Assembly (NCBI RefSeq): GCF_048403405.1
Contig: NZ_CP183129.1
Length of the DNA: 64,000 nt
Strand: one strand, 5' to 3'
Origin: Escherichia coli
GTDB taxonomy: Bacteria; Pseudomonadota; Gammaproteobacteria; Enterobacterales; Enterobacteriaceae
Each line of letters begins with the position of its first letter. The stretch's first letter is position 1. The notes under the pieces were generated by a model that was not told the origin of the DNA, did no database searches, and saw only the letters and a list, made by a program, of their open reading frames with translations. Position numbers and translations under genes: made by a program. Below, in pieces: positions 1 through 52,385 of the stretch.

Positions 1-885
1 ATTTGTCTTCGCTCGCCTCTACGGTACGGGTATCAGTCTGACGCGGCATCGGCGCAGGTGCCCACTCCACCAGACCATCCAGCATATGATCGACGCCGAA
101 GTTACCCAGCGCAGTACCAAAGAATACCGGAGTGATTTCGCCCGCAAGGAACAATTCTTTGTCGAACTCGTTAGACGCGCCTTTCACCAGCTCCAGTTCA
201 TCACGCAGCTGCTGCGCCAGATCTTCACCAACCGCAGCGTCGAGATCCGGGTTATTCAGCCCTTTAACAATACGGACTTCCTGAATGGTGTGGCCTTTAC
301 CGCTCTGATAAAGATAGGTTTCATCTTTATAAAGGTGGTAAACGCCTTTAAACAGCTTGCCGCAGCCAATCGGCCAGGTGATCGGTGCGCAGCCGATTTT
401 CAGCTCGTTCTCAACTTCATCGAGCAGTTCCATCGGGTCGCGGATATCACGGTCAAGTTTGTTCATAAAGGTGAGGATCGGCGTATCGCGCAGACGGGTA
501 ACTTCCATCAGCTTGCGGGTACGATCTTCAACACCTTTTGCGGCGTCGATAACCATCAGGCAGCAGTCCACCGCCGTCAGGGTACGATAGGTATCTTCCG
601 AGAAGTCTTCGTGCCCCGGGGTGTCGAGCAGGTTAACCAGGCAATCGTGATACGGAAACTGCATCACAGACGTAGTAATGGAGATCCCACGCTGCTTTTC
701 CATCTCCATCCAGTCCGACTTAGCGTGCTGGTTGGAACCACGGCCTTTTACTGTACCGGCGGTCTGAATGGCCTGTCCGAACAGCAGCACCTTCTCGGTG
801 ATGGTAGTCTTACCGGCGTCTGGGTGAGAAATAATTGCAAAGGTTCTTCTTTTCGCTACCTCTGCGGCCAAAAGGCTTGTCATAA
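1..885 (-). CDS. prfC: peptide chain release factor 3, partial (3' part runs off window start); first ~16 codons are prophage-derived
   Basis: Minus-strand translation from ATG at 883-885 gives [37 protein letters not shown]..., a GTPase G-domain matching RF3. Confidence 0.93.
822..835. repeat. att core copy (prfC-proximal junction), gggtgagaaataat
   Basis: Identical 14-mer at 49057..49070, about 20/23 identity over the extended repeat; encodes the AIISHP codons of prfC. Confidence 0.6.
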
Positions 886-1043
886 TTGTTGTCTCTTTGA
901 TTATGTACAATCATATGTACAAAGAAAAATTCATGCCGCTGATTGTACATTTTGGAGGTATCAGAGCATAGCAGAACATGATCAGTAGGTGTATTTGTAG
1001 CCAAAGAACATTTGTACATGCAGCAATCTTTGTTCCATTGACA

Positions 1044-3727: not shown

Positions 3728-4768
3728 TTATTTAGACGCAAGCGCCGCCTCAATTGCAGATAATCTTTGTCTTAATTCTGCGTTTTCTTCTTCCAGTGCT
3801 GTTATTCTGTCGTCTGACTCTCTGGCTACCTGAACAAGCAAGCCAGTAACACCAGAATAATCTACTGTGTAATAACGTTCACCTTCTTCACCTTCCGATC
3901 CGCTTGCGCCGTCCTGATATTTCATTGCGGAACCTACAACTTCTGGGATTGCTTCCAGAGCTTCCTGTGCAATGACACCAGCATAGGGCATACCGTTTTC
4001 TTTAAGCGTGTATGTATAGCCGTTCATTTTACGGATGCGGTCGGTTGCATTATCGATCACCTGAATGTTGTCTTTCAGATCCCGGTCGGAATGCTGGTTA
4101 AATGCGGTGGCATGACATGCACCATTAACGCTTAACATATAGGTGTTATCGGTATTTTTTTGCGCATAGAACATATAAGCGCCACCATCAACACCGACTT
4201 CATAAACAACAGGACGGCTGGAGTTGCCCCACAATTGAGCAGTAACACCAGCATAAGCGGTTCCCTGTGTGTTTAATGTCATGGTTGACCCATGATTGGC
4301 ATATTTGATCTGTAATGTGTCGGTGTAATCAAATTTAATAAGCGCGTTACTTCCACGCTTGCTGTATGACATAAGGCAGTTACCCATTTTGAGGTATCCG
4401 CTGTCACCGGGAAAAATCATCGTACCGCCATAAAGGTTGGTAAAGTCCCAGCAAATGTTTGTCCCGTTATCGTTCAGGTTAAGGCGCGCCATTGCGTTAC
4501 CTGGACTGTCTATCCATTTTTTGAGGTATAGTTCGCAATACGCATCCTCAACACCTGCCGTCCTGTGAGTTGAGCGGAGTTTTCTCCCAAATATAGCTCC
4601 GCTAGTTGGCAATACCTGCTGATACCATGAAGCAGACCAGTCACCAACGATTTCATCTTTGCTGTCTACATATAATTTTGTTGCGTAGCTTCCTTGATCG
4701 TTTTTTAATTTGCTAACGTCGGATTTTAGCGTTTTGATGTCATCAGGAATTACTGTCGATGTAGCCAT
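3728..4768 (-). CDS. tail fiber/receptor-binding protein with C-terminal intramolecular chaperone (peptidase S74-like) domain
   Basis: 346 aa; C-terminal SDRDLKDNI...GYTYTLKENG...ALEAIPEVV followed by a coiled-coil tail, typical of auto-processing chaperone domains. Confidence 0.7.
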   Translation of the reverse strand: MATSTVIPDDIKTLKSDVSKLKNDQGSYATKLYVDSKDEIVGDWSASWYQQVLPTSGAIFGRKLRSTHRTAGVEDAYCELYLKKWIDSPGNAMARLNLNDNGTNICWDFTNLYGGTMIFPGDSGYLKMGNCLMSYSKRGSNALIKFDYTDTLQIKYANHGSTMTLNTQGTAYAGVTAQLWGNSSRPVVYEVGVDGGAYMFYAQKNTDNTYMLSVNGACHATAFNQHSDRDLKDNIQVIDNATDRIRKMNGYTYTLKENGMPYAGVIAQEALEAIPEVVGSAMKYQDGASGSEGEEGERYYTVDYSGVTGLLVQVARESDDRITALEEENAELRQRLSAIEAALASK

Positions 4769-4777
4769 TTTTCTTCC

Positions 4778-5059
4778 TCACATCCAGCCACGAAGTTGAT
4801 GCTCAACAGCAACCACGTATTCATCGAATAATGACGATATTTGCGAATCATTAATGATGCGCACGTTTACAAAATATCCGTCTTCCTTAACACATACCGG
4901 TTCGCCATCTTCAGTCAGTTCTCCGGTTTCTTTGTACACGTTACCTATCACGTCAATAAGAATATCATCCTGCATCAACTCGTCATCATAATAGCCAATG
5001 CTCTCCATAAAGGCCGAAAAGTCGGCCCTGTCGGGAAATTTGAGTGTTAAATCTTTCAT
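4778..5059 (-). CDS. hypothetical acidic protein (93 aa) between the fiber genes
   Basis: ORF overlaps the stf stop by 1 nt, suggesting translational coupling. Confidence 0.5.
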   Translation of the reverse strand: MKDLTLKFPDRADFSAFMESIGYYDDELMQDDILIDVIGNVYKETGELTEDGEPVCVKEDGYFVNVRIINDSQISSLFDEYVVAVEHQLRGWM

Positions 5060-7440
5060 TAGATTGACTCCCCCACCTGAGCATCAGTCAATGCCTTGTG
5101 CCATATTCTGAAATTCCTTACATGACCAAATAAATGACGTAACCCGGCTGTAGTCTGGCCTCCAATACGGATAATTGCGGTGTTCTGAATACAGGACCAT
5201 GTGGTTTTTGTTTCGCTGGATATACGCCCGTTACTTACTGCGCATGTAGACTGATCAGACTTTACACGCATCCCCATAACCATTTTTTCAAGTGATGCAT
5301 TTTCGTTTATCCGTCTGTTAGACCCACCAATATCGCAATAAGGAAATCCGTCGTAATCTGCTGAAGAACCGAAGCCAAGAATAATAGCCGCTCCGGTTTG
5401 ATGACCGCCGGTATCAAAAACACGCGGTGCTGCATTTGGCGTTTTATACCAGTTCTTATGTACCTCACAAAGAACCGTAAAAGGAAGATTATAAAGATTA
5501 TTCTTAATGGGAACTGTGACTATATCGCTTGCGCGGGTCGCCGCCGTCGTTCCTGATATAATAAAAGATGATACACAAGGCCCATTTTCTACTTGTGGGG
5601 TGGCCAGATAAATATAGTCACCAGATACGGTTGCCCCGCCCTGCTTAGGAGAATACTGTATCTGAGAACCTATTTTTAACTCCCCATCAATTGCCTGAAT
5701 TGTTGCCTCTGCAAAAATCCATCCGATAACTTCGTCCTTTCTGACTCTCGCTGTAATCCTTGAGGCAGCGCCGCCTGTCATATTAATTTCAAGCGTTTGT
5801 GTATCAATATACACATCACCAAGAAAAGTTGTTGCGCTACCGTCATATTTATCAAATCGGATACGCAACCTTACCTGCAGTTCTGTTTTAAAACGACATG
5901 AGGTTGTCACGTATTTATTATCGCCTGAGACATCAACTGACTTTGTTGCAGCAATTGATGCCATATTAATGGCTGAGGTTTGCCCAATCAGAGAATCGTT
6001 ACAGACAAACTTTCCATAGGTAAAACCAAAACTATCCGTCCCGGTTTCGGGAACATCCATATTTGACGATCGCCCCCAACTGGCAGGGCTTTCCGAATTG
6101 AGCATGTAGTTCGTTCTTTGCCCCTCAATAAGCAGGCCATCACGTTCAAACCGTGGCTCGTCAATGGCAGCCTCTGTCAGCACACCAGATTTATTAATAT
6201 AGGTTGCTTTCGATGCGCGTTTAAACTTAACAACCTTGTCGCCAGGCATCGTTATTTCATCATCACCAATAACAATCTTTTTATATGACGGCGAAAAGCC
6301 CGTAATCATATCCAGCGAATCGTTAAATGGTATCCACACATCAGGCAGCGGCTGTAAGACATATTTATACGGCTCCGCAGCCTGGCTTGCGTACTCTCTG
6401 GCTGCATCTTCGCTTGCTTTAGCTGCCGTCTGGCTTGCTGCCGATGCTTTCGCTGAGTTCGCAGCCGCTGTTTCGCTCACCTTTGCGTTGGTTTCACTGG
6501 TTTTTGCTGCTTTTTGACTGTTAGCTGATGCAGTGGCAGAAGCAGCAGCCGCGCTTGCAGAACCAGCTGCAGCACTCTCGCTTTCGGCTGCTGCATCCTG
6601 ACTGCTTTTCGCCGCAGTTTCGCTGGCTTTGGCATTCGTTTCGCTGGTCTTCGCTGCCGTCTGGCTGGACTTTGCGTTAGTTTCACTCGTCTTCGCTGCT
6701 TTCTGACTGTTAGCCGCAGCAGTTGCTGATCCAGCAGCTGAAGTCGCAGAACCGGCTGCCGCGCTCTCGCTTTCGGCTGCTGCATCCTGACTGCTTTTCG
6801 CCGCAGTTTCACTGGCTTTGGCATTCGTTTCGCTGGTTTTCGCTGCCGTCTGGCTGGACTTTGCGTTGGTTTCGCTCGTCTTTGCGGCTGTCTCGCTATT
6901 TTTCGCGTTGGTTTCTGATTTTTTGGCTGCTGTCGCGGAGTTTTCTGATGCAGTCTGTGAGGTCGCTGCCGCCTGTGCACTATTAGCTGCATTCGTTTCT
7001 GAGGTTTTCGCCGCGTTCTTCGATGATGCCGCTGCAGTTTCGGATTTCTTTGCCGCCGCTGCGCTCTGAGAGGCGGCTTCGGCGTTGCGTGCCGCTTCTT
7101 CCACCATTTCCTCAAAACGACGCAATGCCTCCGGCATGACATCATCTTCCGTCATGGCACCGAGAAAATCATTCAGCGTACCTGGTCTGGAACCTTCATA
7201 GACGGTAATGGTTCCGGCATGTGAAGGCGGAAAACCTTCAACAAGCAGGATAACGCTGTACTGGCCATACTCAACATCCATGCTGTAACGCCCGGCTTCA
7301 TCCGGATTTTCAGAGGCCACCGTGTTCACCAGTACCGTGGTGCTGTTACGCTTTGCCTTCAGTTGAATAGTGCAGTTCTGTATTGGTTTTCCCGCACCAT
7401 CTTTCAGCACACCTGAGATTTTTACTGCTGCCATATCCAC
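5059..7440 (-). CDS. stf: side tail fiber protein (lambda Stf-like N-terminus, Ala/Ser/Thr-rich repeats, distinct C-terminal domains)
   Basis: N-terminus MAAVKISGVLKDGAGKP..NCTIQLKA matches lambda Stf; C-terminus ends GHVRNFRIWHKALTDAQV (lectin/LamG-like motif). Confidence 0.85.
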   Translation of the reverse strand: MDMAAVKISGVLKDGAGKPIQNCTIQLKAKRNSTTVLVNTVASENPDEAGRYSMDVEYGQYSVILLVEGFPPSHAGTITVYEGSRPGTLNDFLGAMTEDDVMPEALRRFEEMVEEAARNAEAASQSAAAAKKSETAAASSKNAAKTSETNAANSAQAAATSQTASENSATAAKKSETNAKNSETAAKTSETNAKSSQTAAKTSETNAKASETAAKSSQDAAAESESAAAGSATSAAGSATAAANSQKAAKTSETNAKSSQTAAKTSETNAKASETAAKSSQDAAAESESAAAGSASAAAASATASANSQKAAKTSETNAKVSETAAANSAKASAASQTAAKASEDAAREYASQAAEPYKYVLQPLPDVWIPFNDSLDMITGFSPSYKKIVIGDDEITMPGDKVVKFKRASKATYINKSGVLTEAAIDEPRFERDGLLIEGQRTNYMLNSESPASWGRSSNMDVPETGTDSFGFTYGKFVCNDSLIGQTSAINMASIAATKSVDVSGDNKYVTTSCRFKTELQVRLRIRFDKYDGSATTFLGDVYIDTQTLEINMTGGAASRITARVRKDEVIGWIFAEATIQAIDGELKIGSQIQYSPKQGGATVSGDYIYLATPQVENGPCVSSFIISGTTAATRASDIVTVPIKNNLYNLPFTVLCEVHKNWYKTPNAAPRVFDTGGHQTGAAIILGFGSSADYDGFPYCDIGGSNRRINENASLEKMVMGMRVKSDQSTCAVSNGRISSETKTTWSCIQNTAIIRIGGQTTAGLRHLFGHVRNFRIWHKALTDAQVGESI
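6511..6888. repeat. tandem direct repeat, 189-bp period (about two copies), inside stf
   Basis: ctcgctttcggctgctgcatcctgactgcttttcgccgcagtttc occurs at about 6577 and 6766; protein repeat AAKTSETNAKSSQTAAKTSETNAKASETAAKSSQDAAAESESAAAGSA. Confidence 0.8.
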
Positions 7441-7498
7441 TCCACAAAAAAGCCCGCCTGAACCGGCGGGCTGTCATAACACTGTGTTACCTGGCTAA

Positions 7499-8098
7499 TC
7501 AGAATTTATAACCGACACCCACGATGAAACCGTCAGTGCGCCAGTCACCACTGCCGGAACCTTCATAAGCAAGGTCAATGGCCACGGATTCGGTCGGGTT
7601 AAACTGCACGCCAGCCCCCCACGCCAGAGACGTGTTGCTGTGGCGACCGTCATCACTTCCGGTCAGCACATCGTGCGTTTTCCCCTTGTTGTCAGTTACG
7701 CGGAGATAATCCCCGGAGAAGGTCGACACACGGCTGTAAGCCATACCCGCCATCGCATAAGCACTGAACCATTCATTCACGCGTACAGATGGCCCCGCCA
7801 TCATGCTGAACCAGCGGTTACGCACGGAATCTTCATGCCAGCGGGTATCGCTGTAATGCGTTTTTTGCTCATCTTTGGCATTGGCATAACTGAATGACGT
7901 CACCAGCCCCAGCGTGTCCGTAAATTCATAACGGTATTTCACGTTAATGCCCTTCAGGTCATCACTGCCTGGCATATCAGTATGGGTCTGAAGATACCCG
8001 GCGCTTAGTGTGGACTGATGCTCTGCTGCGCTCGCTGGCGTACCAGCGGCAACCAGCCAGACTACTGCGGACAGAATAACAGCACATAATTTACGCAT
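7499..8098 (-). CDS. lom: Lom outer membrane protein (Ail/Lom family)
   Basis: 199 aa with signal peptide, C-terminal ...GVGYKF; position after J as in lambda. Confidence 0.9.
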   Translation of the reverse strand: MRKLCAVILSAVVWLVAAGTPASAAEHQSTLSAGYLQTHTDMPGSDDLKGINVKYRYEFTDTLGLVTSFSYANAKDEQKTHYSDTRWHEDSVRNRWFSMMAGPSVRVNEWFSAYAMAGMAYSRVSTFSGDYLRVTDNKGKTHDVLTGSDDGRHSNTSLAWGAGVQFNPTESVAIDLAYEGSGSGDWRTDGFIVGVGYKF

Positions 8099-8165
8099 AA
8101 TTACCTCTCGCTTTTCTGCAATAAAAAAGGCGTCATTTCTGACGCCCGTATTGGGGTTATAAAAT

Positions 8166-11100
8166 TCAGCTGATACTGATGCCTGCGGTGGCTTTCTTCA
8201 TCACCACAACCAGCAAATCGCTGATACTTGCTGTGGGATACCAGTCATTTACCAGCCATGCTGACACCGAAAACTCCAGCGTCATGTGACCGTGACCGGC
8301 AGGCATATCAATAACGCCACTGTAAATCAGCGTATTATCCAGCGCGGTACGGTTATAAATTTCAGCACCGTTTTTCCGCACTATCAGACGGCATGAGGAG
8401 TAAATATCAGTATGCTCTCTCTCATGTTTAGCGCCGCTGAATGCCACCGCCGGAATAACAATCTGCCGGTCAAACGGCTGATCGTCATAAATCCTGACGG
8501 TAATGGTCCCTGATGGCCACCGTTCCGGTGCACGGGAGTCCCGGGGGAAAGCTTTGCCCACTGTTTTAACGAGATCGCCTTCAATCTGGTTCGCGGACAG
8601 TTTTCCCAGAACCCGGCAGTTCTCGTTAATCGTGACGTTGTTGAGCGTCCCGGAGTTCGCATTCACGTTACCGCTGATATCGGCATTTTTCGCCGTCAGC
8701 CGCCCGTCCGGTGTCAGGGAAAATGCCGGAGGATTACCGCCGCTGGTAATGGTGGGAGCCGTCAGATATTTCAGGAACACTTCATTCATAAATATCTGAT
8801 CGCCCTGACCAACAAACATCGGCTTTGTGTTGCCATTCGCAGGATTAACCATCGCAATCCTGTCCGCCGCCAGCAGCACCTGACTCTGCATACCGTCAGG
8901 AGTATTCTCAATACCGGCACCAATACCCGCGATATAAAGGCGTCCGTCCTGCATCTGCTGCAGCTTCACAGCCCACATGCTGTTCAGGTTATTATTTGTA
9001 TCAACCTGAACCTTCTGTATCTGCTGAATTACCGCACTCTGGTCTTCCAGTTTATTATTGACGGTCTGCGTGATTTCATTGCTGACATCCGTAATGGACG
9101 TCCTGATTTCAGCCAGGTCAGGCGCAAGCTGACCGTTATCAATCTGCGTCCACAGCTCCTGAGCCAGATGGCTTTTCCCTATCTCGCCTTTGAAAAAATC
9201 CAGATAGCCGGATGCATCATCACTCGGCTGGCCAACAGCCTCCACAAATGCCGATTTGCCAACGGTGTTCACACTGCGGATGTAAAAATAATAATCATGG
9301 CCCGGTTTGATATTGATACTGGTGGCTATCCAGTACAGCGCCGTGCCAAGATAGCGGGCTGTGGTTTCAACCTGCCTGATATCGGTAATCCGCGTTTCCG
9401 AGAACCAGAACTCAAACTGTACCGTCGGATCATAAACCGCAAGATGCGGCGTGGCAGTTATCTGAAAATAGCCCGGCGTCAGCTCAATCCGCGACGGCGC
9501 TGCCGGTGCGGCAATCCGGAACGATACCGATGCCGGATCGCCCTGCTGTCCCCACGCATTTACCGCCCGGACCGTCAGCGTGTAACGCCCCAGCGCCAGT
9601 TGCCTGAAGCGGTATGTGGTTTCCGTCGTCCTGGCCGTGCTGACCAGCCGCTCACTGCCGTCGTCCGCTGCCACGGTCAGGCGAAGCAGGAAGCTCACGC
9701 CCTTCACCACCTTCGGCGTGTCCCAGCGGGCCAGTACCTGATACTCCCCGCTGTCTGCGGTGACTTCGGCAGTCAGGTGCTGCACCGCTGGCGGCGTGAC
9801 ACCATTCACCGTGCCGCTCTGGTCACCGTCAAAGTGCGCCCCGTTATCCACGATGGCTTCTTTCTCCGGTACATGCTGCACGGCGGTGATGGCATACGTG
9901 CCATCGTCGTTCTCACGGATACTCACACAGCGGAACAGGCGCTGGCGCAGCGTCGGCAGCTTCAGCCCCCATACGCTGTATTCAGCAACACTGTCAGGAA
10001 CACGGCTCACTTTTACCTTCACGCCGTCGGTGACGGACTGAACCTCCACGCTGACCGGATTGCCACTTCCGTCAACCAGGCTTATCAGCGTGGTACCGGA
10101 GGATGGCAGCGTGATTTCACGGTCGAGCGTCAGCGTCCGGGTCTGGCTGTTCACCGCCAGTACACGACCACCGGTGCTGATACCGGCATAGTCATCATCA
10201 CAGATTTCAATAACATCGCCCGGTACATGGCGAAGCCCTTCTGCGCCGACGCTGAAATCCACGGTCTGCGTTTCCAGCAGTTCCGTTTTAATCAGCCACA
10301 GCCCGGCGCGGTGTGCCTGCCCCCGGCTGGTACAGCCAAAGGCATCCATCTTCGTGACGTTACGACCGTAACGGGCAATGGCCTGCGTGTCCTCCACAAG
10401 CTCTGTCGCCGTCTCCCAGCCGTTGTTCGGGTCAATCCAGTTCACCTCAACGGCATTATGGCGGTCCTTCAGGGCGCTGAAGCTGTAGCGGAACGGCGCG
10501 CCATCATCCGGCATCACCACATTACTGCGGTTATAGGTCCACACCTTATCCGACGGTCGGTCCTGCACGAATGTCAGCGTCTGCCCGTTCCATACCGGCA
10601 TACAGCGCATCGCCGAGCAGAAATCACTGAGCACATCCCACGCCTTGCGCTGTGTGGCCAGGTACGCATTACAGGTGATGCGCGGCTCCGTGCCGCCAAA
10701 ACCATCCGGCACCGACTGGTCGCAATACTGGCTGATGACATACAGCGCCCATTTATCCACATCTGCCGCACCAAGACGTTTCCCCATGCCGTAGCGCGGA
10801 TGGGTCAGCATATCCCACAGACACCAGGCCATGTTGTTGCTGTATGCTGGCTTAAACGTTCCGTCCCAGATACCGCTGTATTGCCGCGTCTGCGGGTTAT
10901 AGTTCGACGGCACCTGCAGAATGCGCCCGCGAAGATGATAATTACGGCTCACCTGCTGGCTGCCGAACTGCTCCGAATCCACCTGCACGCCGACCAGTGC
11001 CGTGTTCGGGTAGCACTGTTTCACATCGATGATTTCGGTGTATGACGACCAGAGCGTTTTGTTCTGCAGCTGGTCTGTGGTGCTGTCCGGCGTCATTCTG

Positions 11101-29660: not shown

Positions 29661-29931
29661 AATGTTACCGTAATATGTGAGTATCCATCGACTAGACACT
29701 AAGCAAAAAAGCTCCCGAAGGAGCCTTCATTTTCACTTTCTTAAATCTAACGACAGACGGCTAACATTTAAGTATTGTGAAATATTATCAAATGTAATCA
29801 TCATTGATTTACAAAAGATACATTTTGCCCCGAAAGGATTCCTGTCAGAAACATCAAAAGATGATGTTCTATACTGAGAACCATGGCAACACGGGCATCT
29901 AAAGTGAATATGGTTTGTAATATTTTCTACC

Positions 29932-30144
29932 TCAAAGTGCCACTACATGAACAGCCGCGGGGCCTTTAGGTCCGTTCTCAATACCAAATTCGACTTCCTG
30001 ATTCTCAGTTAACGTTTTGAAATCGTTGCTCTGAATAGCTGAGAAATGGACAAACACATCTTTGCTACCATCTTTCGGCGTGATGAAACCAAAACCTTTT
30101 TCAGGGTTAAACCATTTCACTAAACCAGTCATTTTGTTAGACAT
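29932..30144 (-). CDS. cold-shock protein (CspA family, CspI-like)
   Basis: [23 protein letters not shown]...; RNP motifs. Confidence 0.9.
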
Positions 30145-30508
30145 CATTATTACCTTTTGAAGAAGTTAGCCCTTGGGCAGAATGGTCCGAAAAAAAAATA
30201 TCAGAGAGAAAAACCAACAAGGAAATCTCAAGAGGTACAAATAATAAATTTATAACAATGACTGCTTCAGATAATTTTGTAACAAACCAGAACACCATTA
30301 ACGCATGATTAACCAACCATAGCAAGGATTACTTTTGTAAAGAAAAACACACGAATGAAACAATAGCTTTATTTATTAATAAAACGTGTCATTCTGTCTA
30401 ATGACCTTTTATCTTACCCTTAAGATTTCAAGGATTTTGACTCATGGAAGAGTCCTTTTTATTTAAATTTCACATTCAGCGCTAAAAATAATCCGATTTA
30501 ATATTAAT

Positions 30509-33097: not shown

Positions 33098-33381
33098 TTT
33101 AATATTGTGGTACTTTTTGTGGGAGTCATCCACTTACGCACTTTGTTTTGCTATGCCAGCAGTTAGCTTCTGCTGTAAAACTATTCATGCAGCAAACCTG
33201 CACTTCACCACAATGGTTAGCATACTTTTCCTGATTAAGTTATTGCCAAATATGCTGGCCATTGTTTCATGTATTGGACCTCCTTACTATTTATTAAAGA
33301 GATCCAATATTCACCACTCTGTCTGTATCTCCACTCAGGCATCAGCCTTCTTCGTTATCGTATACAGACAAACTATGAATT

Positions 33382-33597
33382 TTAATCAGTAATTATGACA
33401 TTTGCTGCTGCAGGACCTTTAGCACCACTCTCTACAGAGAAGGTAACCTTTTGACCTTCAAATAAGGTTCGATAATTATCATTCTGAATCGCAGAAAAAT
33501 GCACAAACACATCTTTACTACCATCAACAGGAGAAATAAAGCCAAAACCTTTATCAGCGTTAAACCATTTTACTAAACCAGTCATTTTATTTGACAT
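33382..33597 (-). CDS. cold-shock protein (CspB/CspI-like)
   Basis: 71 aa [23 protein letters not shown]... Confidence 0.9.
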
Positions 33598-33896
33598 TCT
33601 ACATTCCTTAACTTGAGCCTTTCGGCATAAATGGCTTGTATAACAGAAACGACTTCGTACTTAATTGGAGAGACTCAAAGAAGGAATAAGTGAATAACAC
33701 CTGAAATGAGAACTGCTTTAGTAAACTACTTCGTATATCGTCTGTTCTTCAAACCGACGCAATCATTAACGCATAGTTGAACATATGAAGCAATGTTTAT
33801 TTTAGACATCCAGCCATCTTCAACCCCATCAAAAAACTATAGCTTTCTTCAGGAACGTGTGTATAGTGCGCCAAGTTATCAGTATTAAGGAATTTT

Positions 33897-40183: not shown

Positions 40184-41012
40184 GACGATGCCCTCCGCTG
40201 ATATTCAGGAGACGGTGAATATGAAAATTAGCCTTATCCGCCAGACGAATACGTTCAGCCTGCAAGTTAAGAAGGGTTTCTACCAAAACCTGATGCGCCT
40301 GCGGATCCGAAAGAGTTACCTTGCGCAGAGCACGTAGTGCAGTTGTTACATAACTGAGTTTATGTAAGTCTTCATCATTCAGACGAGTGAGGGCTGGGAC
40401 AGTAGCCATGATGGCAGCCTCCGATAACAGTGAATTACCTTCACCACCGGAAACGCCAATTTCGCTGGTGGTGAACTGAACGGGGTTGGCGTAACCGGCG
40501 TTATCGGAAACCGGCGCACCTTTCGGTGCCCCCGTCCAGCCCACCATAATTTGGGTGTGCACAGACGCAGACGATAAAAAAGACGCTGGCGCGTCATATA
40601 TCGCCGATAACATTTCCAGGACGCCAATCCCGTCACCCGCTTTATAAGGTGCCTGAACAGTGTAACGTCCCGGAATGGCAGAATCAATGTGCTGGTGGTC
40701 CTTCACACTCAACAAAATCACGCCTGAATTTCCACAAAGGACTAAAGCACTCATGCGGGTAGTCTTTGCGAAGATAGATAACGCGCTGTGTTTCTGGTTC
40801 CCAACGAATAACATGGACATAAAGCCCTCTTCCGTCACGAAACCAGCGGTTAAGTTCCCGCACAACTCGCCCCCCACAGTCAGGTAAAGTTCTCTGTGGT
40901 TACTTACAGCCAGGTAATTTGGTAATCTGCATTCATGCCGTAACAACAGGTGTTCAGCGACACTGACCACCAGCTGTTGCGACAAACGGTTATTTGCCGT
41001 TAAACTGTTCAT
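40176..41012 (-). CDS. hypothetical protein (278 aa), translationally coupled between the CII-like and O-like genes
   Basis: ATGA overlap with the upstream gene; no recognisable motif. Confidence 0.5.
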   Translation of the reverse strand: MNSLTANNRLSQQLVVSVAEHLLLRHECRLPNYLAVSNHRELYLTVGGELCGNLTAGFVTEEGFMSMLFVGNQKHSALSIFAKTTRMSALVLCGNSGVILLSVKDHQHIDSAIPGRYTVQAPYKAGDGIGVLEMLSAIYDAPASFLSSASVHTQIMVGWTGAPKGAPVSDNAGYANPVQFTTSEIGVSGGEGNSLLSEAAIMATVPALTRLNDEDLHKLSYVTTALRALRKVTLSDPQAHQVLVETLLNLQAERIRLADKANFHIHRLLNISGGHRHA

Positions 41013-41804: not shown

Positions 41805-41826
41805 ACAATATGTACCTCCGGTATAC

Positions 41827-41854
41827 ATATTACATGATTGAAATGAACCTTCAA
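41827..41854 (-). promoter_or_regulatory. PR-like promoter (-35 TTGAAG, 16-nt spacer, -10 TAATAT)
   Basis: Read on the minus strand upstream of cro. Confidence 0.4.
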
Positions 41855-41860
41855 GATACT

Positions 41861-41877
41861 TGTACCTTATCGGTACA
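41861..41877. promoter_or_regulatory. operator-like 17-bp perfect palindrome TGTACCTTATCGGTACA
   Basis: Between the divergent cI and cro starts; related half-sites nearby and at the PL-like promoter. Confidence 0.5.
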
Positions 41878-41894: not shown

Positions 41895-42569
41895 ATGAAA
41901 ACAATCCATGACATCCGGCGGTCTAACGCCAGAAAACTGAGAGATGGTGTTGGCGGAAATTCATCCTTTGCCACCATGATTGATCGCGAGCCAACCCAAA
42001 CCAGCAGGTTTATGGGGGATGGCGCTACTAAAAATATCGGTGACAGCATGGCACGGCACATCGAAAAATGTTTCGACCTGCCTGTCGGATGGCTTGATCA
42101 AGAACACCAGACAACGAACATCACAAAAAAACCTGATGTTTCAATCACTAACAAACAAATAACGTTAGTCCCTGTCATATCATGGGTACAGGCCGGAGCA
42201 TGGAAAGAAGTTGGCTATTCTGAGGTTGATTTGAGCACAGCAGAAACGTATCCCTGCCCTGTACCCTGTGGCGAAATGACTTATATCTTGCGGGTGATTG
42301 GTGATTCAATGATTGATGAGTACCGCCCTGGAGACATGATTTTTGTTGATCCCGAAGTCCCTGCCTGCCACGGTGACGACGTTATTGCATTGATGCACGA
42401 TACAGGCGAAACCACCTTCAAGCGATTGATAGAAGATGGAACACAGCGTTATCTCAAAGCATTAAACCCAAACTGGCCTGAGCCTTACATTAAGATTAAC
42501 GGTAATTGCTCTATAATTGGTACAGTGATTTTCTCGGGAAAACCAAGAAGATACACAATAAAGGCCTAA
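41895..42569 (+). CDS. cI: CI-like repressor (HTH plus S24 LexA-like peptidase domain)
   Basis: 224 aa; Ala-Gly site in VQAGAW, Ser in GDSM, Lys in TFKRL. Confidence 0.9.
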   Translation: MKTIHDIRRSNARKLRDGVGGNSSFATMIDREPTQTSRFMGDGATKNIGDSMARHIEKCFDLPVGWLDQEHQTTNITKKPDVSITNKQITLVPVISWVQAGAWKEVGYSEVDLSTAETYPCPVPCGEMTYILRVIGDSMIDEYRPGDMIFVDPEVPACHGDDVIALMHDTGETTFKRLIEDGTQRYLKALNPNWPEPYIKINGNCSIIGTVIFSGKPRRYTIKA

Positions 42570-42608: not shown

Positions 42609-42636
42609 TTGACAATGTACCCATGAGATACATAAT
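42609..42636 (+). promoter_or_regulatory. PL-like promoter (-35 TTGACA, 16-nt spacer, -10 CATAAT)
   Basis: Directly after the cI terminator, directed toward the early-left genes. Confidence 0.5.
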
Positions 42637-43039
42637 GTATCCAAAAGAAACATGAGGCAGGCAAGATTCAAACAAAATTTGGTTGTAACACGGCGTATGG
42701 CACATGCGTCGTTAGCGGTCTGGGGACGTTAAAGGGGACAATCCACTTCTTGCTCGGGCAAACAAACCAGGTAGTCGGAATGTGCAAGTCAATGATGATG
42801 CTGATAAGACGCCTAACCAGCGTGGCGATCCGGTTTGACGCCTGGGAAGAGACCAGGGTGCAACGATGAGGGCATTTATGGAGCCGCGACAAAGTGTGGT
42901 GCCGTAACTGGCTAAGTGCTCTCAGCGTTGTGGTAATCCGCGAAATGGCGCGGCGGTAAGTATGGCGGGGTTACTCTTTCCCCGTTGAGGACACCGGATT
43001 GTCAGGTTGACCATACGCCTGAGTGACAACCCCACCACA

Positions 43040-45507: not shown

Positions 45508-46127
45508 TGACCACATTTACCAATAAAGAACTGATTAAAGAAATCAAAGAACGAATCAGCAGCCTAGAGGTTCGAGACGATATTGAGCGCCGTGCTTATG
45601 AAATTGCTCTGGCATCGCTAGAAGAGGAGCCGGTGGCATGGCTGCATTCAGAAAATGGCTTAGGTATTCCGGCAATAACGAGGAGTAAAAACATTGCTGA
45701 CAGTTGGTTATCAAAGGGCTGGTATGTTCAGCCGCTATATATAGCCAAGCCAGTGCCGATGGTGCCAGATGCTCGTCCGTCTTTAAATAATGGCATAGTC
45801 GGCTTTGATGAAGGCTGGAACGCCTGCCGCGCCTCCATGCTTAATGGTGCCGAACCTGTAAGCCAGACTTATAAGTTGAACGAGCTGTCGGGCAACTCTC
45901 CGGTAACTCCGGATGGTTGGATAAGCTGTAGTGAGCGAATGCCGAACGATAAACAGTATGTTTGGTGTTGGGGTAAGTCTTACGGCTGGACTGAGTGCGA
46001 TACCTTCGAAGGGTATTACGATTGTTCGAGAAACAAATGGTGGGCAGTTACTGACAATGGGGAAGAACCGGCATCGAAAGTAACCCACTGGATGCCGCTA
46101 CCGGAGCCGCCGCAGGAGGTGAAGTAA
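45507..46127 (+). CDS. DUF551-domain protein (YfdT-like)
   Basis: C-terminal WISCSERMPNDKQYVWCW...THWMPLPEPP. Confidence 0.55.
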   Translation: MTTFTNKELIKEIKERISSLEVRDDIERRAYEIALASLEEEPVAWLHSENGLGIPAITRSKNIADSWLSKGWYVQPLYIAKPVPMVPDARPSLNNGIVGFDEGWNACRASMLNGAEPVSQTYKLNELSGNSPVTPDGWISCSERMPNDKQYVWCWGKSYGWTECDTFEGYYDCSRNKWWAVTDNGEEPASKVTHWMPLPEPPQEVK

Positions 46128-46321
46128 TGAACAACTTAATGACAACTAAACAAGTCGCCGATTTCTGTGGTGTTTCAGTATCGACAGTTCTTCGCTGGAA
46201 CAGCGTAAACAGGAGAACTGGCCAGAAATACAGGCCTGACTTTCCAGATCCTGATATTAAATCCTGCCCAAATAAATGGGCATCACACAAGATTTACAGA
46301 TTTGCGGGAGTGATTGATTAA
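46127..46321 (+). CDS. xis: AlpA/excisionase-like HTH protein
   Basis: 64 aa; MTTKQVADFCGVSVSTVLRW HTH; adjacent to the integrase module. Confidence 0.6.
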   Translation: MNNLMTTKQVADFCGVSVSTVLRWNSVNRRTGQKYRPDFPDPDIKSCPNKWASHKIYRFAGVID

Positions 46322-46597: not shown

Positions 46598-47317
46598 TTA
46601 AATCTCTGTTTCTTTTCCTGTTCGGCTCAACCAATACTCCATTGTTTGAGTATGAATCTTTTCAGCGTATATTTTTTCAATTAATTTATCTCGTTTTTCT
46701 TTAATGACTTTACGCAGTGAATCATATAACATAAAAAAACGTTCATCATCTTCCTCATTATTACCGTAATTTATTTGATTGAGTTCTGAAAAAATATGAT
46801 AGCACCTTTTTTTCTTGGTCCCCGGCAATATTAAAACCAAGCCGCATTGATCATATTCAAATTCACCTTTATGGGCAGCAAAGTTATGTCTAACATTCAT
46901 AATAGAATCATGTAAATCTCTGTATTTTTCTGGCACATGCTTTCTCTGCAATGTGAATCGACGCCCTTTCGCCTCTGTAAAACACTTACCGTAAGTAACA
47001 ACTTTTGATATAAATAAAGACTTTAATATTAGATTCTTTTCTAAATCAGGATAAATAAAGTGTTGTTCTCTATTAATGTTATTACAAATGTTTTTTATTA
47101 TATTCTCCCAACCAATAACATTCCGAAGATCTTTATCCAGCAACTGTAAGGCCACATATTGTTCTACAAAGCGGCCTTTTAAAGGTATTCGTGGTAATAT
47201 TACACCTTTCTGCTTATAAACTCTTTCTATCGTATTATCTGGATATTGGATCTTCCTTATTTCTATTCCGTCTTCTTCTGATACCCTTACTAATGGTTCA
47301 TTTTTTAACTTTGACAT
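46598..47317 (-). CDS. hypothetical protein (239 aa) in an AT-rich moron between xis and int
   Basis: Visibly AT-rich relative to neighbours; own upstream intergenic region of 283 bp; R-x5-H motif at residues 143-149. Confidence 0.6.
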   Translation of the reverse strand: MSKLKNEPLVRVSEEDGIEIRKIQYPDNTIERVYKQKGVILPRIPLKGRFVEQYVALQLLDKDLRNVIGWENIIKNICNNINREQHFIYPDLEKNLILKSLFISKVVTYGKCFTEAKGRRFTLQRKHVPEKYRDLHDSIMNVRHNFAAHKGEFEYDQCGLVLILPGTKKKRCYHIFSELNQINYGNNEEDDERFFMLYDSLRKVIKEKRDKLIEKIYAEKIHTQTMEYWLSRTGKETEI

Positions 47318-47602: not shown

Positions 47603-48826
47603 TCAGTTTGAATCAGAGATAGTACAATTAACAATCGATTCAACCCTCTTCCACCATGCCAGGTAAGCTTTACGCTGTTCTTCTAGATAATCGCTCTTAT
47701 CATAAACTTGCCATACCCCTGGCAGCTTATGACCAAGCATAATTTCTGCGATATGAGGCGCAGTAAGATCAGAAAAATTTGTTCGTGCTGTCCGTCTCAA
47801 GTCATGAAGAGACCAATGAGGGAATTGATATCCTAAACGCCGCCACGCGTACTGCATTAAATTGTAAGGCAGCGACTGTAATGATGTCCTACCGACTGGC
47901 TCCCTGCTTCCTTCCTTAGTAAAAAGCATATCGGAACCGTTGTTCATAGAGATAACGTATTTTATAAGCTCTTCAACCGGTTCAATAATGGGCCGCTTTA
48001 GCGGTTCGCCTGTTATGTCCCCTGTCTTATGTCGTTCAGGTGGTACAGTCCATACCTTATTTATGAAATCAAAATCACCCACCCTAGCAGTAATTAGCTC
48101 CGAACTACGGCAACCAAAATGCAGTAATAGTTTAATGAAGGCCCTGTATTTGGGAACCATTCTAGAGCCATCGATCGCAGCATAAAGAATTTTAATTTCA
48201 TCGTGTGTCAGAAACCGTTTCTTCTGACCTTTACGGATATCCATATCTTTACCCGTGATATCCGACAGCGGGCGAGTTTCAATAAGCTTTCTCTTATACG
48301 CCCAGACATGGGCCTGCTTTGCGTTAATTAGCAATCGGTCTGCTATTGCTGGAGTCTTAGTGCTAAGAGGCTCCAGGACTTCTAACCAATCATGCAATGT
48401 AGCTGCATCGTGAGGGATATTCCCGATTTTAGAGAACAGGTGCAGCTCAAACGAGCGGAGTATCTGTTCAGAACTCTTTTTATTTTTTACACAATATGCT
48501 TCATACCAGGCACGGATCACAGACTCTACCGTCATGGCTTCAGTAGCTTTTCGTTTTTCAGCCTGCTTGACCAATCGTGGATTACGGTTTGACTCGAGTT
48601 CACCACGGAGACGGATAACTTCTTCTCTGGCCTCTTTTAATCCAGTTGCCGGGTAAGTTCCGATATCAAGACGCTCACCTTTCCCTGCCCATTGATAACG
48701 ATATTGGAACACTACGCGACCTTTCGGTGATACTCTGACAGACAGACCATCACGATCGGATTTAACCAAAACCTTATCACGTTCCTTTCCAACGACTGAA
48801 CGCAACCACGCATCAGACAGCGCCAT
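47603..48826 (-). CDS. int: tyrosine integrase (P4-type)
   Basis: 407 aa; catalytic R (GCRSSEL), H-x-x-R (HDLRRT) and C-terminal Y. Confidence 0.95.
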   Translation of the reverse strand: MALSDAWLRSVVGKERDKVLVKSDRDGLSVRVSPKGRVVFQYRYQWAGKGERLDIGTYPATGLKEAREEVIRLRGELESNRNPRLVKQAEKRKATEAMTVESVIRAWYEAYCVKNKKSSEQILRSFELHLFSKIGNIPHDAATLHDWLEVLEPLSTKTPAIADRLLINAKQAHVWAYKRKLIETRPLSDITGKDMDIRKGQKKRFLTHDEIKILYAAIDGSRMVPKYRAFIKLLLHFGCRSSELITARVGDFDFINKVWTVPPERHKTGDITGEPLKRPIIEPVEELIKYVISMNNGSDMLFTKEGSREPVGRTSLQSLPYNLMQYAWRRLGYQFPHWSLHDLRRTARTNFSDLTAPHIAEIMLGHKLPGVWQVYDKSDYLEEQRKAYLAWWKRVESIVNCTISDSN

Positions 48827-49055
48827 TACTCACCTTGTACAAATCGCAAAACACCTCTGCTGCTTTGTACATTATGTACAAGCATATGTACAGATTTTTG
48901 ATGAAAGCAACCTGATCGATTTAAAGTTACATGAAAGAATTTTCAATTAAAGAAGCCACATAACCATATGTATTTAAATGAGTTATATAACCAGACCTCA
49001 ATTAACTGAAAGGATTTTGAAAGAGTAAAAGAGCTTTAATTTGGGATTAATTATT

Positions 49056-49121
49056 GGGGTGAGAAATAATGGCAAAAGTGCGGCGCTTCGCCACCTCTTG
49101 CAAATAAGGAGACAACGTCAT
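49056..49121 (-). pseudogene. prfC: orphaned original 5' end of prfC (first 22 codons, [22 protein letters not shown]), with its native upstream region to 49210
   Basis: Minus-strand ATG at 49119..49121; frame ends in phage DNA after about 24 codons. Confidence 0.7.
49057..49070. repeat. att core copy (integrase-proximal junction)
   Basis: Direct repeat of 822..835, 230 bp beyond the integrase start. Confidence 0.6.
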
Positions 49122-49210
49122 AATTCTTTCTTCTTGAGTAAGCGGCATCGCGCCGCGCTTGTTGAAAACGAAAAATTGCGGCTATTTTACCCATCAACGG
49201 GGGGAGGCAA

Positions 49211-49888
49211 TCAGTGTTTACACAGGAGCTGCTCCAGTTCGTGCAACGAAGAAACGGTCCAGGTGGGCGCGATGCCTTCTGGTTGCTCGCGATTGTGCGC
49301 ATTCAGCCAGCAGGTCGCAAGCCCGGCGTTGATGCCACCGAGAATATCGGACTCGGCAGTGTCGCCAACCATCAGCACGCGTGAACGGTCAGGATTGCCC
49401 GCCTGTTCCAGCGCATAATCGAAAATTTTCTTATTCGGTTTGGCAACGCCAACTTCTTCGGAAATCACCAGCAAATCGAAATAATCACGCAGGCCCGTGC
49501 GTTCCAGACGCACTTGCTGCAAGGCGCTAAAGCCGTTGGTGATGATGCCAATTTTAGCGTTGCCACGAATGGCGTTAAGCAGAGAAACCGCGCCCGGCAG
49601 CGGCGTACAGATTTCCGCCATCGCATTAATAAAGGCTTCGTTGAGTTTACCCGGCTCGACGTTCAGCCGTTCGGCCCAGCTCTCAAACCGCCCGTGCTGA
49701 AGCTGTAATGAAGTGATCGCGCCGTTTTGATAATCCACCCACAGTGGCTTGTTAACGGCCTGATAGTCCTGAAAATCTTCAGCGGTAAAGGTGACGCTGT
49801 AATCAAGAAACATCCGCTGCAGGCCGGTGAATGAGTCAAAGGTAAACAGCGTTTCATCGGCATCAAAGAAAATCCAGTCCCACTTCAT
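49211..49888 (-). CDS. yjjG: pyrimidine 5'-nucleotidase YjjG (HAD family)
   Basis: 225 aa; DxD motif FFDADETL. Confidence 0.9.
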
Positions 49889-49902
49889 TATTCCACCTTG
49901 TC

Positions 49903-50349
49903 TTACATACTGATTGGCAACGCCATGATGATGGCGTCTTCGCGACCGTCCGTGGTGGGGTAGTAATTGCGGCGAATTGTCGCCTCGTTAAAGCCTAAAC
50001 TTTCGTACAGGGCAATGGCGGCAGCGTTTGAAGCACGGACTTCCAGCCATAGTGTCGCCACGCCGCGTTTTTCCAGTTCGTCGATCAGATGTTCCAGCAG
50101 CGCCCTTCCCAATCCCTGACGCTGATAGTCAGGATCGACCGCAATATTGAACAATGTAGCTTCATCCAGCACCACTTGCGTAATCGCAAACGCCGCCATT
50201 TTGCCGTTTTGCGTTAACTGAAAGTTGAGATAACGCTCGCCCTGGTTGCTGGCAAAGGTTTTTTCACTCCACGGAAAGGCGTGGGCGCGTTGTTCAATGT
50301 GGTAAGCCGCTGGTAAATCAGTCGTTTCGAGGGAAGAAATCGTGTTCAT
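49903..50349 (-). CDS. rimI: ribosomal-protein-S18-alanine N-acetyltransferase
   Basis: 148 aa GNAT; Q/RxxGxG/A motif. Confidence 0.9.
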
Positions 50350-50731
50350 ATGTGCAAATTTGTTGCCATAACGCGGCGCGTGCCGTTGGGTTTGCCCGTA
50401 ATTCGGTGAGCGCCGGTGATGCCACCTGAGCGCCTTCCAGTGATAGCGGTTCGTCAGTACCCAACCGCCAGCTGTTGCAGCGACTGCCTTGTGGCAGCAT
50501 CGCGATTTTTTCTGGCGTCAGTTGCAGCACTTGATCGGGGCTGACGGTTAATGCGCGCAGAACATCGCTCACCAGAGGATCGGTCAGGGCGGGAAGATCG
50601 TTTGCCACCATCACCAGACGGACGTGTGCCGGGATCGCAATCGCAATCTCCCCCTGCAACGCGCCAGGGCGACGCAGCGACCACTGGGTAATGCCCAGTT
50701 GCTGTAACTGCCAGTCTCGTCGGGATGTCAT
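50318..50731 (-). CDS. holD: DNA polymerase III psi subunit
   Basis: 137 aa, MTSRRDWQLQQLGITQW... Confidence 0.9.
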   Translation of the reverse strand: MTSRRDWQLQQLGITQWSLRRPGALQGEIAIAIPAHVRLVMVANDLPALTDPLVSDVLRALTVSPDQVLQLTPEKIAMLPQGSRCNSWRLGTDEPLSLEGAQVASPALTELRANPTARAALWQQICTYEHDFFPRND

Positions 50732-52064: not shown

Positions 52065-52150
52065 GCGAAGGTGGCGGAATTGGTAGACGCGCTAGCTTCA
52101 GGTGTTAGTGTCCTTACGGACGTGGGGGTTCAAGTCCCCCCCTCGCACCA
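52065..52150 (+). tRNA. leuV: tRNA-Leu (anticodon CAG)
   Basis: gcgaaggtggcggaattggtagacgcg...ttcaagtcc...cgcacca; long variable arm; CUUCAGG anticodon loop. Confidence 0.9.
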
Positions 52151-52178
52151 AAAACCACGTTGATATTGCTCGCACTGG

Positions 52179-52264
52179 GCGAAGGTGGCGGAATTGGTAG
52201 ACGCGCTAGCTTCAGGTGTTAGTGTTCTTACGGACGTGGGGGTTCAAGTCCCCCCCTCGCACCA
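52179..52264 (+). tRNA. leuP: tRNA-Leu (anticodon CAG)
   Basis: Near-identical tandem copy. Confidence 0.9.
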
Positions 52265-52298
52265 AACGAGGCGATATCAAAAAAAGTAAGATGACTGT

Positions 52299-52385
52299 GC
52301 GAAGGTGGCGGAATTGGTAGACGCGCTAGCTTCAGGTGTTAGTGTCCTTACGGACGTGGGGGTTCAAGTCCCCCCCCTCGCACCA
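52299..52385 (+). tRNA. leuQ: tRNA-Leu (anticodon CAG)
   Basis: Near-identical tandem copy. Confidence 0.9.

Follow-up and report, generated by a model that had tools for sequence, protein, structure and literature searches.

The 64,000-nt stretch of Escherichia coli DNA analysed here (hereafter the window) carries a lambdoid prophage, with lambda-like head and tail genes, integrated within the 5′ end of prfC, the gene for release factor 3. Repeats of the hexamer TGTACA at both ends of this prophage were confirmed and are conserved. They form part of the element's recombination module: they lie in both attachment (att) arms, cover the region upstream of the integrase gene int and recur ahead of the prfC start that the phage brings in. 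Judged from sequence comparison, they are probably arm-type sites for the N-terminal arm-binding domain of the prfC-targeting integrase. The genes and junctions concerned are as follows.

822-835: attL core, GGGTGAGAAATAAT (the minus strand reads ATTATTTCTCACCC)
49057-49070: attR core, GGGTGAGAAATAAT, with 14 bp identical to the attL core
left of 883, minus strand: prfC, consisting of the host gene plus a phage-supplied 5′ end
836-883, minus strand: new prfC 5′ end from the phage, 16 codons, joined in frame at the core to the host part of the gene and contiguous with attP in phages 2H10, cdtI and Ayreon
49071-49121, minus strand: orphaned native prfC 5′ end, which together with the core encodes 24 residues and reaches a stop just within the phage
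47603-48826, minus strand: int, a tyrosine integrase of 407 amino acids with an N-terminal arm-DNA-binding domain

The att core coincides with prfC codons 17-21, which encode Ile-Ile-Ser-His-Pro. Its placement is supported from both sides of the recombination reaction. The reconstructed attP (48780-49070 joined to 836-1110) aligned without gaps to the circular or linear genomes of the free phages 2H10, cdtI and Ayreon, and 4717 of the 5426 complete E. coli genomes carry the reconstructed attB (640-835 joined to 49071-49270) as an unbroken prfC-yjjG junction. Moreover, the Stx1a phage record LC727891 annotates an identical 14-bp duplication. Since the core is the 14-bp GGGTGAGAAATAAT at 822-835 and 49057-49070, the two motif clusters fall within phage DNA, in the P and P′ arms. 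A longer candidate, the 22-bp direct repeat ATTATGTACAA[T/G]CATATGTACA at 900-921 and 48871-48892, was also tried as the att core and rejected: the attB derived from it matched about 700 genomes, and these partially, and the derived attP missed 264 bp which are present in the free phages.

Integration at this position acts as a promoter swap, whereby the phage provides the prfC upstream region together with the 16 codons, and the native prfC promoter now aims through the P arm at int. No terminator was predicted between the displaced prfC promoter and int. P-arm sequence of this phage type is present at prfC in about 700 of the 5426 complete E. coli genomes (13%).

TGTACA sites in the P and P′ arms

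The repeated elements of the two arms are listed below. N6 denotes a spacer of six nucleotides.

900-921, minus strand: P′-arm module TGTACA-TATGAT-TGTACATAAT, with sites at 904-909 and 916-921, ending 16 nt upstream of the new prfC ATG
944-949: third P′-arm TGTACA, within the 8-mer TTGTACAT, which is the inverse orientation of ATGTACAA
1013-1018: fourth and most distal P′-arm TGTACA, within the 8-mer TTGTACAT
48836-48841: P-arm TGTACA immediately before the AGGTGAG ribosome-binding site, 9 nt upstream of the int ATG
48866-48892, minus strand: P-arm cluster TGTACA-TATGCT-TGTACA-TAA-TGTACA, with sites at 48887, 48875 and 48866, including a TGTACA-N6-TGTACATAAT module
48902-49023, minus strand: second repeat, found in the P arm only, with four copies of CTTTCA (plus-strand TGAAAG at 48902, 48932, 49007 and 49018)

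An earlier sequence-only reading of this DNA had noted the motif (A/T)TGTACA three times at 886-960 and four times at 48836-48895. Both clusters were recovered, with an additional copy at 1012. Expressed as hexamers, TGTACA starts at 904, 916, 944 and 1013 in the left arm and at 48836, 48866, 48875 and 48887 in the right one; the corresponding WTGTACA starts are 903, 915, 943 and 1012, and 48835, 48865, 48874 and 48886. In the P arm the four sites precede the int ATG by 9 to 60 bp, at distances of 164-215 bp from the core; in the P′ arm the four sites precede the new prfC ATG by 20 to 129 bp, and their distances from the core are 68-177 bp. The TGTACA-N6-TGTACATAAT module of the P arm is located 44 nt upstream of the int ATG. 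On the other side of the prophage, the site at 944 is part of a perfect 11-nt inverted repeat, ATGTACAATCA / TGATTGTACAT, formed with the site at 903-913. No TGTACA was present in 800 bp of the empty attB. The motif is thus repeated in both arms, unlike the core in sequence and missing from the bacterial partner, as expected of arm-type sites.

The comparison with background frequency, proposed by the same reading, gave a divided answer. Over the whole window the number of hexamers is ordinary, with 14 TGTACA seen versus 12.2 expected (21 versus 12.9 for WTGTACA), but their clustering in the arms is not. The two phage arms, 495 bp together, hold 8 of the 14 TGTACA copies of the window, and 7 of the 8 window occurrences of the asymmetric 8-mer form of the motif, ATGTACAA. 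A first-order Markov model trained on the AT-rich arms themselves produced a mean of 0.29 TGTACA and a maximum of 4 in 5000 simulations, and four copies within 120 bp were obtained in none of 200 simulations of the whole window.

The CTTTCA repeats are of a different kind. Two of the copies lie within a 20-nt unit that occurs at 48927-48946 and 49002-49021 (80% identical), and the repeat is absent from the P′ arm. In the Vibrio, Pseudomonas, Marinomonas and Acinetobacter relatives, RAGRCA-type repeats stand in place of CTTTCA. These repeats are candidate sites of an excisionase, a directionality factor or an accessory factor. No RNA family was found in the arms by Rfam search.

Conservation of the sites with the integrase

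The Pfam matches of the integrase are PF13356 (Arm-DNA-bind_3, residues 3-90, E = 1.9e-16), PF22022 and PF00589, the first of which represents a dedicated arm-binding domain, the protein feature that goes with arm-type sites; a central domain and the catalytic domain make up the rest of the protein's domain set. The nearest solved structures to this N-terminal domain, 3JTZ and 3JU0, are both apo forms. Among the motif-bearing homologues, residues 1-90 exceed the rest of the integrase in conservation, for example with 66% versus 45% in Photorhabdus.

Conservation of the DNA motif was followed in 12 integrase homologues (51-84% identity) picked by protein similarity alone from gamma- and betaproteobacteria: Salmonella, Pantoea stewartii, Xenorhabdus innexi, Serratia, Erwinia, Pantoea agglomerans, Alcanivorax, Shewanella, Pseudomonas, Vibrio diabolicus, Acidovorax and Arsenophonus. 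The arrangement YGTACA-N6-YGTACATAA was present upstream of int, at least partially, in all 12 of them in otherwise diverged DNA, with 9 to 12 of the 12 hexamer positions matched per homologue and Erwinia being the weakest. Within about 30 nt upstream of the int start, beside the ribosome-binding site, a further TGTACA was found in eight homologues, TGTACG in two and TGGACA in one. In the alignment of the 13 int-upstream regions the conserved columns are the two hexamers and the TAA, together with a partly conserved A-rich stretch just upstream. The Acidovorax element retains the module against a background of 61% G+C. The majority of the homologues are located in the 5′ end of prfC. The P. 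agglomerans locus, in which no prfC remnant is visible upstream of int, has the module as well, which ties the motif to the integrase and not to prfC.

A more distant relative, the integrase of Klebsiella phage 5 LV-2017 (46% identical), was informative in another way. The comparison concerns the int-upstream side, the record ending inside a tail gene before the P′ arm. At all four int-upstream sites (150-215 of its locus) the hexamer is TGTCCA/TGGACA, whereas the layout is the same, with an N6-spaced pair followed by TAT and then two sites in inverse orientation. Such a concerted change from TGTACA to TGTCCA points to a protein encoded by the element rather than to a host factor or sigma-70/RNA polymerase. 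Two further sources added little: the IMG/VR integrase scan returned relatives at 97-100% identity only, mostly cut at the int start and thus not informative for this comparison, and the record of Moraxella phage Mcat10 begins at the int ATG and contributes no upstream sequence.

A genome-wide scan with the module itself returned at least 120 loci, about 98 of 120 being apparently chance matches, and it yields no frequencies. Among the matches listed, the module adjoins int starts in Photorhabdus, Acinetobacter, Marinomonas and Xenorhabdus ehlersii, and it adjoins prfC starts as well. In the latter position it precedes an element-supplied prfC in Xenorhabdus ehlersii, Budvicia and an Osedax symbiont (again among the matches listed). 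Furthermore, TGTACA-N6-TGTACATAAT was found 13-17 nt upstream of the prfC start in four loci, including those of Vitreoscilla massiliensis and Moraxella bovis, in which neither an integrase nor an orphan prfC fragment was seen. The 10 kb upstream of prfC in Vitreoscilla consists of housekeeping-type genes. In local coordinates, these loci are the following.

4514-4535: module upstream of prfC, Vitreoscilla massiliensis
735-756: module upstream of prfC, Moraxella bovis
1171-1192 and 2455-2476: module upstream of prfC, two further loci
4700-7710: decayed element, Budvicia aquatica
7830-10230: decayed element, Osedax symbiont

The two decayed elements span approximately 2.5 kb each. In both, an orphan 5′ end of prfC or pieces of int come first, and after them stands a full prfC with the module in front of it. 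In Budvicia the two prfC 5′ ends encode the same N-terminus, and each has a TGTACA upstream. As to Vitreoscilla and Moraxella, their module might be either the fossil of a decayed element or a native control element of prfC.

Candidate binding proteins and roles

From the comparisons above we infer the integrase as the binding protein, and likewise any regulatory effect of its binding. Integrase bound at the four P and four P′ sites would bridge to the core GGGTGAGAAATAAT in prfC and, once bridged, would assemble the complexes of integration and excision. Because int starts beside attP and is convergent with an excisionase-like (Xis-like) gene, the P-arm sites cover the last 60 bp before the int ATG, where an int promoter or leader would be placed. 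Bound integrase would probably also lower int expression, in the manner of IntS of KplE1 (see below), and at the module copy before the phage-supplied prfC start it might affect the hybrid prfC.

Several observations weigh against arm-site function of the hexamers. The main uncertainty is that the CTTTCA/RAGRCA repeats of the P arm could be the true arm sites, leaving TGTACA to another protein. Classical arm-type sites are asymmetric 9-10-mers, and TGTACA is palindromic; its asymmetry would rest on the flanking bases of ATGTACAA, which are less conserved across genera. The attP contained no match to the IHF consensus with up to one mismatch. Promoter scans found no sigma-70 consensus promoter on the strand of int or of the new prfC start, and overlap of a promoter with the sites is therefore assumed. 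The module loci of Vitreoscilla and Moraxella are without int, so the module can persist or function with no integrase gene nearby. Finally, 11 loci of the genome-wide scan are not independent evidence because the motif itself was the query.

The sequence-only reading had left the choice between the integrase and the phage repressor CI, having recognised the TGTAC half-site of the motif in the 17-bp palindromic operator between cI and cro and at a PL-like promoter. Both occurrences were found in place, in the dyad TGTACCTTATCGGTACA and in TGTACCCATGAGATACA, the latter abutting a TTGACA hexamer beyond the 3′ end of cI. The relevant features of the immunity region are given here.

41895-42569: cI, repressor gene
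41811-41827: operator TGTACCTCCGGTATACA, between the cro-like gene and cI
41844-41860: weaker operator TGAACCTTCAAGATACT, between the cro-like gene and cI
41861-41877: operator TGTACCTTATCGGTACA, between the cro-like gene and cI
42616-42632: PL-side operator TGTACCCATGAGATACA
42636-42652: PL-side operator TGTATCCAAAAGAAACA

Since lambdoid phages are mosaics, comparison can separate the integrase from the repressor, and it makes it very unlikely that CI binds the att-arm motifs besides its operators and couples immunity to recombination or to int/prfC expression. The operators follow a 17-bp dyad, TGTAYC-N5-GRTACA. With up to two mismatches, this model matched the five immunity-region sites (41811-41877 and 42616-42652), the only ones among the phage regulatory regions, plus a few scattered intragenic positions; no match fell in the att arms, where the paired hexamers are spaced by N3 or N6 and not by the N5 of the operators. 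The att sites accordingly lack the operator dyad, and they do not co-occur with cI either. The cI of the window is 99% identical to that of SfV, and many phages with this integrase share it (2H10, cdtI, Ayreon and 12 Stx2c phages), a pairing that, like the common TGTAC of the TGTACC half-site, speaks for the repressor. However, the SfV-type cI is paired with other integrases in SfV, SfIV, PhiR49_1 and PhiR29. Two of these, SfV and PhiR49_1, share the cI (99% identity) and its three operators but use a different integrase, insert next to a tRNA gene and are without a TGTACA cluster at or near attP: SfV has three copies in 37 kb and none in attP, and PhiR49_1 has one copy within int and none in the end sequence examined. 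Conversely, PhiR63_1, with the same int and attP but an unrelated Xre-type cI and TTGCGC-type operators, keeps all eight hexamers, as does the Stx1a phage LC727891, whose cI is merely 32% identical. The motif is also kept by elements with related integrases in many other genera. It is thus inherited with the integrase regardless of other phage modules and co-varies with the divergence of the integrase, and the TGTAC shared by operators and att motif looks like a coincidence. Of the two proteins named by the sequence-only reading, the integrase as the presumed ligand is favoured by all comparative evidence, i.e., by its domain, by the location of the sites in both arms, and by their inheritance and conservation with int. 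Least likely of all, in our view, is binding of a conserved host transcription factor such as a TyrR-like protein. Between the TyrR box, TGTAAA-N6-TTTACA, and TGTACA-N6-TGTACA, 10 of 12 positions agree, as do the spacing, the 18-bp geometry and the G and C positions, and the module precedes prfC in apparently non-mobile contexts too. But apart from single degenerate half-sites (TGAACA, in P. agglomerans), no lineage examined has lost the central C of the hexamer, and TGTAAA never appears; the lone hexamers beside the ribosome-binding site are conserved as well, all four Klebsiella sites change together, the native E. coli prfC is without such a site in the 800 bp of empty attB, and the element ranges over hosts from Acidovorax to Acinetobacter.

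Two other explanations deserve more weight, although both appear unlikely. One is that another element-encoded protein binds TGTACA and controls directionality or int expression, the chief candidate being the putative excisionase encoded at 46127-46321. Palindromic and often paired hexamers would suit a helix-turn-helix dimer, the Xis-like gene is conserved together with int in E. coli, Salmonella, Pantoea, Xenorhabdus and Serratia, the concerted change to TGTCCA is compatible with any protein of the element, and in KplE1 the region of the int promoter is bound by the directionality factor TorI as well (PMC2951348). Yet the sites of directionality factors are normally confined to one arm, as CTTTCA is to the P arm, and TGTACA occupies both; in Acinetobacter pittii and Photorhabdus cinerea, both of which keep the module, the DNA within 10 kb of int yielded no relative of this Xis; and the protein feature best conserved alongside the motif is the N-terminal domain of the integrase. 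The other explanation, which we hold at slightly lower odds still, regards TGTACA-N6-TGTACATAAT chiefly as a promoter or leader element, duplicated before int and the phage-borne prfC, with no role in recombination. The hybrid prfC needs a phage-supplied promoter, the module is placed 44 nt and 16 nt upstream of the two start codons, its 3′ end CATAAT agrees with the -10 consensus at five of six positions, and in Vitreoscilla and Moraxella it stands upstream of prfC in housekeeping-type surroundings with no integrase in the locus. Against this, the consensus scan finds neither a sigma-70 promoter nor a -35 element on that strand, Vibrio, Pseudomonas and Photorhabdus have CATAAA, without the -10-like T, the isolated TGTACA at 944, 1013 and 48836 are outside promoter geometry, and the alteration of all four Klebsiella hexamers is unexpected for a target of RNA polymerase. 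Moreover, the roles are compatible, as arm sites overlapping a promoter are documented in KplE1.

A wider role of the integrase is conceivable, albeit doubtful. TGTACA-N6-TGTACATAA might be an integrase-operated switch standing before two genes, int and the replacement 5′ end of prfC. In the lysogen the integrase would double as a transcription factor tuning release factor 3 and itself, with the host prfC promoter redirected to int, and after decay of the element the module would stay behind as a control region of prfC. Seen in that light, the loci of Budvicia and the Osedax symbiont resemble intermediate stages, and those of Vitreoscilla and Moraxella resemble end states.

Neighbouring features, related systems and significance

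The features which surround the recombination module complete the description of the locus.

46127-46321, plus strand: candidate excisionase of 64 amino acids with a MerR/HTH_17-like helix-turn-helix, convergent with int
46598-47317: open reading frame of 239 amino acids
1103-1351: dinI-like gene (PF06183)
49211-50731, right flank: yjjG, rimI and holD, identified by the sizes of the open reading frames, with the prfC-yjjG junction annotated in the empty-site comparison
52065-52382, plus strand: three tandem tRNA genes in the chromosomal flank right of the prophage
40464-40652, 29886-30292 and 33319-33758: Rfam matches in the prophage, comprising an adjacent C4 antisense RNA and isrK near the early region, and two cspA thermoregulator leaders

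The HTH_17 match of the candidate excisionase is weak (E = 1.4e-4, below the curated cut-off), and an Xis-like gene adjoins int also in Salmonella, Pantoea, Xenorhabdus and Serratia. The open reading frame at 46598-47317 lies between the Xis-like gene and int, has no Pfam match and is absent from the relatives in these four genera, in which xis is directly adjacent to int. Most probably this reading frame is a cargo gene that was inserted. Just past the P′ arm, the dinI-like gene is preceded by two LexA-type boxes, CTGTTTATTCATACAG and CTGTATACAAACACAG (1044-1087), which overlap a match to the promoter pattern TTGACA-N18-AAAAAT.

Among the well-described systems, the sites resemble the arm sites of lambda Int (P1, P2 and P′1-P′3) in being a short non-core motif that occurs in both arms and is absent from attB, recognised in the case of lambda by a separate N-terminal arm-binding domain such as is present here. 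Unlike the asymmetric 10-mer of lambda, the present motif is a hexamer, palindromic and paired at a fixed N6 distance, and no IHF consensus is seen; int is transcribed away from attP, so that the P-arm sites form its upstream region, and the core is within a protein-coding gene. Another parallel is KplE1 (CPS-53), where the IntS arm-type sites overlap the int promoter, with the P′ arm-type sites covering the intS -10 box, and int is under negative autoregulation (PMC2951348). As in KplE1, the 5′ end of int abuts att, int is transcribed apart from the directionality factor, and repeated sites extend over the last 60 bp before the int ATG. Indeed, this ATG, at 48826, faces away from attR, and the Xis-like gene is on the opposite, convergent strand. 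The two systems differ in integrase clade and motif, and in their target, which is the prfC coding sequence here and the argW tRNA gene in KplE1; furthermore, a second module copy precedes a host gene fusion in the present prophage, and CATAAT within the module is no more than a candidate -10 element.

As for the target, the elements of the SXT type likewise restore prfC with a new 5′ end and promoter, and their core falls on the same Ile-Ile-Ser-His-Pro codons. In the same way, the prophage is inserted inside the 5′ end of prfC and replaces its 5′ coding end. The likeness to SXT/R391 is drawn from the target gene, the present element being a lambdoid phage and not a conjugative element. prfC has been described as an integration site of SXT/R391 elements (PMC2791158) and of Stx phages (PMC10132054). 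By its recombination module, the prophage is a member of the prfC-integrating group that includes cdtI, 2H10, Ayreon, PhiR63_1 and the Stx1a and Stx2c phages of CC119, with integrases at least 96% identical, a shared attP and all TGTACA sites where checked. The CI operators of the SfV/SfIV type have TGTAC in common with the motif through their TGTACC half-site, but they are N5 dyads at the promoters flanking cI and do not occur in the att arms.

A search of the accessible literature returned only unrelated papers, and none that described the TGTACA arm motif, the N6 module or how widely it occurs in gamma- and betaproteobacteria. Arm-type sites, like autoregulated int promoters that overlap att, are already established; the site sequence of this family had previously not been spelled out. 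The finding removes a speculative link between immunity and recombination. It offers a testable site definition for a widespread integrase clade, namely two YGTACA hexamers with an N6 spacer and a TAA after them, plus another copy beside the ribosome-binding site, and Klebsiella phage 5 LV-2017 can be used as a natural specificity variant in swap experiments. The arm sites and the true 14-bp core may also aid the delimitation of prophages, the prediction of attP and attB in relatives, and the design of integration vectors. This concerns a clade of integrases that carries phages encoding the Stx and Cdt toxins in E. coli and whose target gene, prfC, is also that of the SXT/R391 resistance elements.

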